The position numbers were made by a program, and so were the translations under genes. Of a stretch of DNA of 64,000 bases, positions 60,618-61,353 are shown piece after piece; positions within the stretch are counted from its first letter, which is position 1, and each line of letters opens with the position of its first letter. The notes beneath the pieces were generated by a model. It was not told the DNA's origin. It worked only from the letters and a program-made list of their open reading frames with translations, and made no database searches. The stretch is from Escherichia coli (lineage in GTDB: Bacteria; Pseudomonadota; Gammaproteobacteria; Enterobacterales; Enterobacteriaceae): the NCBI RefSeq assembly GCF_046105845.1, contig NZ_CP151004.1; one strand, given 5' to 3'.

Positions 60618-60694
60618 CGCGGGGTGGAGCAGCCTGGTAGCTCGTCGGGCTCATAACCCGAAGGTCGTCGGTTCAAATCCGGCCCCCGCAACCA
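60618..60694 (+). tRNA. metY: Initiator tRNA-fMet
   Basis: 77-nt CGCGGGGTGGAGCAGCCTGGTAGCTCGTCGGGCTCATAACCCGAAGGTCGTCGGTTCAAATCCGGCCCCCGCAACCA with CAT anticodon loop and initiator-type stem features. Confidence 0.93.
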
Positions 60695-60817
60695 CTTTCC
60701 CTTAGAGTCCTTTTTCAAATATACTGTGAAGACTTCGGCCTTCGTAGTGGGATTTGAAAAAATCCTTCTGGAAAGTGCTCCAGACCGCAGTTGCGGTTAT
60801 AGGGTTCAGTTATATAA

Positions 60818-60843
60818 AGCCCCGATTTATCGGGGTTTTTTGT
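60818..60843 (+). terminator. Partial terminator between metY and rimP
   Basis: agccccga/tcggggtt hairpin followed by T-run. Confidence 0.7.
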
Positions 60844-60900
60844 TATCTGACTACAGAATAACTGGGCTTTAGGCCCTTTTTTTATGTCTTGGGGGTGGGC

Positions 60901-61353
60901 TTGTCCACATTAGAGCAAAAATTAACAGAGATGATTACTGCGCCAGTTGAGGCCCTGGGTTTTGAACTGGTTGGCATCGAATTTATTCGCGGTCGCACAT
61001 CCACACTGCGCATCTATATTGATAGTGAAGATGGCATCAATGTTGATGATTGTGCTGATGTGAGCCACCAGGTAAGTGCTGTGCTGGATGTTGAAGATCC
61101 CATCACCGTTGCTTATAACCTGGAAGTCTCCTCACCGGGTCTCGATCGCCCACTGTTCACGGCTGAACACTACGCCCGTTTCGTCGGAGAAGAGGTGACT
61201 CTGGTTCTCCGCATGGCGGTACAAAACCGTCGTAAATGGCAGGGCGTTATCAAAGCGGTAGACGGTGAAATGATCACAGTTACCGTCGAAGGTAAAGATG
61301 AAGTGTTCGCGCTGAGTAATATCCAGAAGGCGAACCTGGTTCCCCACTTTTAA
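60901..61353 (+). CDS. rimP: Ribosome maturation factor RimP
   Basis: Track ORF begins at TTG 60889; recognised RimP N-terminus (M)[27 protein letters not shown] begins at TTG 60901, giving 150 aa. Confidence 0.85.

Follow-up and report, generated by a model that had tools for sequence, protein, structure and literature searches.

In a 64,000-nucleotide (nt) stretch of Escherichia coli contig NZ_CP151004.1 (assembly GCF_046105845.1), hereafter the window, an initiator tRNA gene is followed by rimP, the gene for the ribosome maturation factor RimP. We are confident that with this region begins the metY-rimP-nusA-infB operon of E. coli, operating as described in the literature, and the start of rimP at a TTG (60901–60903), a rare start codon, giving a protein of 150 amino acids, is very well supported, short of proof. 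The whole locus is already known: this is the very locus of the textbooks rather than a related one, and it contains no new element. Sequence elements, coordinates, conservation and covariation, Shine-Dalgarno (SD) geometry, the coding boundary and the spread of wrong starts were computed in the present analysis; for the activity of the promoters, cleavage by RNase III, the partial nature of termination and autoregulation by NusA, it draws on the literature.

A 1.1-kb probe for the rimP-metY region was present in 5425 of 5426 genomes, with 100% identity to many complete E. coli chromosomes. In E. coli SMS-3-5, RefSeq annotation of identical DNA lists argG (− strand), tRNA-Met, rimP, nusA and infB in that order, and the annotation of K-12 MG1655 follows the same gene order. 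In both, the tRNA gene lies downstream of argG and immediately upstream of rimP-nusA-infB, the position of metY. The list of open reading frames (ORFs) in the window places the start of nusA at 61381, past the rimP stop at 61353. The K-12 metY-rimP(yhbC/P15a)-nusA-infB leader is the same locus: positions 60480–60960 align to it without gaps and with only two base differences, one at 60511 in the spacer of promoter P-1 (G in K-12, A in the window) and one at 60664, tRNA position 46 (A in K-12, G in the window). The promoter cores printed for this operon (PMC6511841) were recovered at the expected places in the window, and K-12 has the same TTG start of rimP in RefSeq. An initial annotation of the DNA had delimited the interval from the tRNA to the rimP start as 60618–60903, and both limits coincide with real feature boundaries.

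Evidence for the TTG start of rimP

The rimP coding sequence occupies 60901–61353 on the + strand (453 nt). The initial annotation had rimP apparently starting at a TTG and had pointed to curated annotation as a check; that comparison returned the same TTG in the curated K-12 record (b3170, NP_417639.6) and in genomes annotated by the Prokaryotic Genome Annotation Pipeline (PGAP), SMS-3-5 among them (WP_001300397.1). The 150-residue product is 100% identical to PDB 7AFI chain X, cryo-electron microscopy entries containing E. coli RimP use the 150-residue sequence, and the Pfam domains RimP_N (PF02576) and RimP_C (PF17384) are both recorded on the RimP cluster representative.

Four in-frame start candidates were considered (TTG 60889, GTG 60895, TTG 60901 and ATG 60931) and compared at DNA level across 86 loci, comprising the 80 closest enterobacterial species and six more contigs, among them Yersinia, Xenorhabdus and Sodalis. 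A tRNA-fMet gene lies ~190–215 nt ahead of rimP in 82 of the 83 loci in which both landmarks were matched. TTG 60901 is kept in all 86 loci. Upstream of it, the SD sequence GGGGGUG (60891–60897, +), of which GGGGGU (60891–60896) leaves a 4-nt gap to the TTG, forms a duplex of −9.0 to −9.7 kcal/mol with the 3′ end of 16S rRNA. The SD is invariant except for a G-to-A change in two genera, which gives a perfect GGAGGUG equally far from the TTG. None of the other three candidates bettered −2.0 kcal/mol at a usable gap of 4–9 nt; their best value, −4.3 kcal/mol, came without spacing.

The pattern of substitutions changes at the same codon. From codon +2 to codon +10, 44 of 46 differences fall at third positions, and STLEQKLTE, the peptide encoded there, is conserved. 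In codons −4 to −1, by contrast, 17 differences affect first or second positions (L>P, G>E, G>A/D/E/V), although the rest of the protein is 85–99% identical. The boundary between coding-type and noncoding-type substitution thus falls at TTG 60901. This UUG therefore has both an SD at functional spacing and a coding signature that begins with it.

Coding-type substitutions in codons 2–10 mean that these codons are translated, so ATG 60931 (60931–60933, codon 11), the call of gene finders that prefer ATG, is not the sole start; an extra internal start there would be compatible with the data. As a rule no start codon is stronger than ATG, and in an exact-sequence look-up of the four protein models that the same DNA can yield, the 140-residue model beginning M-I-T-A-P was found on at least 1000 contigs. 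Against it stand the clear coding constraint on the upstream codons, the replacement of the ATG by TTG, CTG or ATA in three loci, and the lack of an SD (−1.9 kcal/mol). We give negligible credence to this codon as the start of RimP.

The two remaining rivals lie within or beside the SD (60889–60897, +). TTG 60889, the first start after the upstream stop, would give 154 residues beginning M-G-V-G-L; it yields the longest ORF in a mechanical listing and has been deposited for CFT073 and others (51 contigs). It is nonetheless CTG or CCG in 7 of the 86 loci, lies 5′ of the SD with only a U-tract upstream of it (−2.4 kcal/mol), and adjoins the U-tract of terminator t2, described below, so that we consider it no more credible a start than the internal ATG.

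GTG 60895, two codons upstream of the TTG, is the most serious competitor. Starting there, RimP would have 152 residues beginning M-G-L-S-T, a model found on 284 contigs, including EDL933 (AAG58306.1) and the UniProt strain entry RIMP_ECO27; 19 relatives are so annotated among the matches listed. The codon is invariant in 86 of 86 loci, an invariance explained by its being part of the SD: it sits inside the GGGGGUG that pairs with the 16S 3′ end. The duplex available upstream of it reaches at best −4.3 kcal/mol, at zero gap, and +1.5 kcal/mol at gaps of 4–9 nt. The Gly codon that follows, between the GTG and TTG 60901, is the most variable of all and becomes Ala, Asp, Glu or Val in six loci, against only two nonsynonymous changes in the nine codons after the TTG. 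It is this SD geometry and this variable codon that exclude GTG 60895, and we rate a start there as improbable.

A wider comparison drew on RimP clusters at 50% identity, with 137 representatives of near-full length. In 47 of the 137 the predicted N-terminus falls exactly at the TTG-encoded residue, and in 90 within two residues of it, while the offsets that fit the 152-, 154- and 140-residue models occur in three, six and one, respectively.

Three points weigh against the TTG. The N-termini of these homologues are themselves predictions of gene callers and so constitute indirect evidence. GTG 60895 is conserved as fully as the TTG (86/86), and conservation alone cannot separate the two. Finally, no directly determined RimP N-terminus or initiation footprint was found in the start-site and N-terminomics literature, to whose supplements access was limited: the TetRP, TRAINSPOTTER and ribosome-signature studies list none of rimP, yhbC and b3170 in their searchable supplements, and a search for statements about the rimP start codon in the literature returned nothing specific. 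Curated annotation, conservation, SD geometry and codon-position substitutions nevertheless agree on TTG 60901, as the initial annotation had it. On this evidence ribosomes would begin rimP at UUG 60901, placed by the GGGGGU 4 nt upstream, to make 150-residue RimP, and this UUG is probably the only start used in vivo.

Mis-started rimP models in public databases

The remark in the initial annotation that gene finders often mis-start rimP is borne out by the deposited records. Identical DNA has been entered as proteins of 140, 150, 152 and 154 residues, with the 150-residue model from TTG 60901 on at least 1000 contigs and in RIMP_ECOLI, and the 154-residue model appearing in CFT073 as “hypothetical protein yhbC”. 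Relatives are extended further, to calls of 160–219 residues: among the 120 closest cluster representatives, obtained by protein word search and all at least 85% identical, RimP lengths run from 142 to 219 amino acids, and many of the calls extend through the leader and join into STLEQ.

Two single records illustrate how far upstream a call can move. A 217-residue representative (P0166), a predicted RimP homologue, opens with a translated tRNA-fMet gene (GWSSLVARRAHNPKVVGSNPAPAT), an extreme upstream mis-start; this relative is ~49% identical and shows that the tRNA-rimP linkage reaches that far. In Logan contig ERR7569698_648 (locus L088, ~230–250), rimP codon 2 (TCC) lacks one C, which puts the TTG and GTG out of frame, and the gene caller gave a 205-residue protein from far upstream; the missing C is probably an assembly error of that single contig.

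The metY initiator tRNA gene

ARAGORN called a tRNA-Met(CAT) on the + strand at exactly 60618–60694, with the CCA end encoded, and the Rfam tRNA model matched it with 61.4 bits (gathering score 29). In the acceptor stem, 5′ CGCGGGG stands opposite CCCCGCA, which leaves a C1×A72 mismatch at the top, flagged as non-canonical in the cmscan alignment, and the anticodon stem is closed by three G-C pairs (GGG/CCC) around CUCAUAA. Both the C1×A72 mismatch and the run of three G-C pairs at the foot of the anticodon stem are established identity elements of initiator tRNAs. ARAGORN, Rfam, these hallmarks and RefSeq annotation all support the initial annotation of an initiator tRNA gene, metY, at this place.

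With G rather than A at 60664, the gene is not of the K-12 type, tRNAfMet2 (A46); the window’s metY therefore encodes the major tRNAfMet1 sequence, as does metY of E. coli B/MRE600 (PMC6511841). G46 at metY is allelic variation and gives no ground for denying the identity of the locus. Of 5425 complete E. coli genomes, 4702 match a 71-nt probe around 60664 without a difference, and the tRNA-fMet was identical to that of the window in 78 of 83 enterobacterial loci; the A46 of K-12 is therefore the minority state.

A second tRNA gene, tRNA-Leu(GAG) at 56751–56837, lies ~3.8 kb from metY in the window, with yhbX and argG between them, and in Citrobacter, Klebsiella and Salmonella, too, the tRNA-Leu is not next to tRNA-fMet. 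In Yersinia, Xenorhabdus, Pantoea, Mixta, Atlantibacter, Cedecea, Buttiauxella and Franconibacter, tRNA-Leu(GAG) is only ~60 nt upstream of tRNA-fMet (loci L041, L042, L054, L073, L074 and L082–L086), and in the three loci with gene calls showing secG (L084–L086) the pair lies downstream of that gene. A minus-strand ORF of 120 residues (60356–60718, −), which spans the promoters and the tRNA gene, has no support and is taken as spurious.

Promoters, RNA processing and attenuation in the leader

Between metY and the rimP TTG lies a leader of 206 nt. The initial annotation had placed a hairpin terminator here; terminators are indeed present, yet there is not a single one but two in tandem, accompanied by an internal promoter and an RNase III hairpin.

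Upstream of metY, promoter P-1 (60496–60525, +; TTGACA, 18-nt spacer, TATAAT) matches the consensus at 12 of 12 positions and is identical to the printed core, including A at 60511 rather than the G of K-12 (PMC6511841). Promoter P0 (60573–60602, +; TTTGCA, 18-nt spacer, TAGAAT; 9/12) corresponds to the core printed in the same paper with one base different. The internal promoter P2 (60694–60735, +) is an exact match to its printed core; its −10 element, TATACT at 60720–60725, is nearly invariant in an alignment of 70 distinct leaders, and its position suggests a transcription start at ~60730–60732. According to the literature, P-1 and P0 would put metY and the downstream mRNA on one transcript, while P2, overlapping the start of the RNase III hairpin, would produce transcripts without the tRNA. 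Directly after the tRNA comes CUUUCCC (60695–60701), a sequence that hardly varies among the aligned leaders. RNAalifold proposed a long-range pairing of its UCCC (60698–60701) with the GGGG of the rimP SD ~195 nt downstream, which amounts to 4 base pairs (bp) with no covariation and was rejected; CUUUCCC is more simply read as the upstream part of the published P2 than as an SD-pairing element.

The alignment of 70 leaders also served as a test of RNA structure, with pairing partners slid by one to three columns as the control. Across the named leader hairpins, 89.7% of alignment cells were paired, against 42–55% with slid partners, and double-sided changes occurred at 16 pairs. The RNase III hairpin (60711–60761, +; 51 nt, 10 + 10 bp; −15.8 kcal/mol, z −3.9) was paired in 81.8% of cells, with double-sided changes at 11 of 20 pairs. 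A published RNase III site, listed as intergenic between rimP and metY at K-12 position 3318176 (PMC5371410), converts through the gap-free K-12 alignment and the K-12 annotation coordinates to 60731, inside this hairpin. RNase III cutting just 3′ of the tRNA would, as the literature describes it, release the tRNA precursor and begin decay of the mRNA. Two small hairpins follow: b (60768–60783, +; CUGGA/UCCAG), paired in 78.7% of cells, with a C-G to U-A swap at one pair in 15 sequences, and c (60784–60797, +; ACCGC AGUU GCGGU), paired in 96.7%, with compensatory changes at four of its five pairs. A further hairpin (60895–60908; GUGG-gcUUGu-CCAC), which has a stem of 4 bp and holds the UUG in its loop, is invariant in the 70 sequences but gains no stability over shuffled ones (z = −0.01) and shows no covariation, and was dropped as a regulatory element.

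A terminator scan of the region returned four terminator-like sites against 1.1 expected from shuffled sequences. Two G+C-rich hairpins, each followed by a U-tract, have the form of intrinsic terminators: t1 (60816–60841, +), with a 10-bp stem, a UUUA loop and six U (−14.1 kcal/mol, z −4.25), and the weaker t2 (60864–60883, +), with a 5-bp stem (GGGC/GCCC) and seven U (−7.4 kcal/mol, z −1.0). In the 70 leaders t1 is essentially invariant, while t2 has an invariant stem and a variable loop; the stems of both show conservation rather than covariation. Rfam family RF01770 (“Gammaproteobacteria rimP leader”) matched 60783–60883 (+) over the full length of the model (1–102) at a score of 102 bits (gathering score 47; E = 9e-18), including both consensus hairpins and their U-tracts. 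It spans that interval only, and the RNase III hairpin and P2, further upstream, fall outside the model.

Terminators upstream of rimP have been named t1 and t2, and transcripts of ~6.7 kb and 4.8 kb from the proximal promoters include rimP and read on into nusA and infB (PMC6511841), in agreement with the initial annotation’s description of termination here as partial. We therefore weighed whether the hairpins might instead be full stops that end a tRNA-only unit, with rimP expressed from a promoter of its own. The strength of t1, a canonical terminator with six U, and the existence of P2, which is independent of the tRNA, would suit such an arrangement; P2, however, lies upstream of both terminators and its transcripts must also read through them, and a consensus scan found no promoter-like site in the 17 nt between t2 and the TTG. 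The read-through transcripts just cited also speak against it, as does the linkage of tRNA, ~206-nt leader and rimP kept across the loci compared, and we regard a tRNA-only unit as highly improbable.

In the attenuator described in the literature, every transcript would meet first the strong hairpin of t1 and then the short one of t2, and only part of the polymerases would be stopped. NusA stimulates hairpin-dependent termination. It has been reported to control its own operon, the transcripts of which rise in mutants with reduced NusA-dependent termination (PMC6511841); on that account the fraction reading through t1 and t2 would set the expression of rimP-nusA-infB, and NusA would feed back at this point.

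The minimum-energy fold contains a further element, a 14-bp helix of 60800–60813 with 60858–60871, which encloses t1 and buries the 5′ arm of t2 (GGGC, 60864–60867). The helix is paired in 92.8% of alignment cells, for which the slid control is biased since the structure was derived from the same sequence, and its 7-bp core can pair in all 70 enterobacterial leaders. Its arms are nearly invariant, with next to no covariation either way, and the consensus structure of RF01770 shows only the two hairpins and not this helix. Speculatively, the leader might be a two-state attenuator, in which polymerases past t1 would allow an anti-terminator to fold that disables t2 unless a factor such as NusA favours the t2 hairpin; we think this rather unlikely.

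In other parts of the window two more RNA families reached gathering level in Rfam: the enterobacterial greA leader at 49977–50098 (+; 127.5 bits) and the small RNA ArcZ at 28371–28478 (−; 120.8 bits). The greA leader, which may be grouped with the autoregulated leaders, attenuators or tandem terminators, of operons for transcription and translation factors, is likewise a conserved 5′ leader with one or more intrinsic terminators, placed before the gene for a factor of transcription elongation or termination. The rimP leader differs in its position behind a tRNA gene, its RNase III site and its internal promoter; the likeness considered here is one of sequence features. A minus-strand match to STnc430 (26.6 bits against a gathering score of 47) and below-threshold matches to RsmY and to the antisense of the rimP leader were taken as chance.

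The main value of these observations lies in quality control, in that identical DNA carries at least four RimP N-termini in public databases, alongside long upstream extensions, one of which runs through the tRNA gene. Start calling at a weak UUG beside a strong SD could be benchmarked on the rimP region of the window. The well-known picture of the operon itself is left unchanged: a single autoregulated unit links initiator tRNA with RimP for ribosome assembly, NusA for transcription termination and IF2 for translation initiation, and within it the weak UUG codon may help to keep RimP output low relative to NusA.

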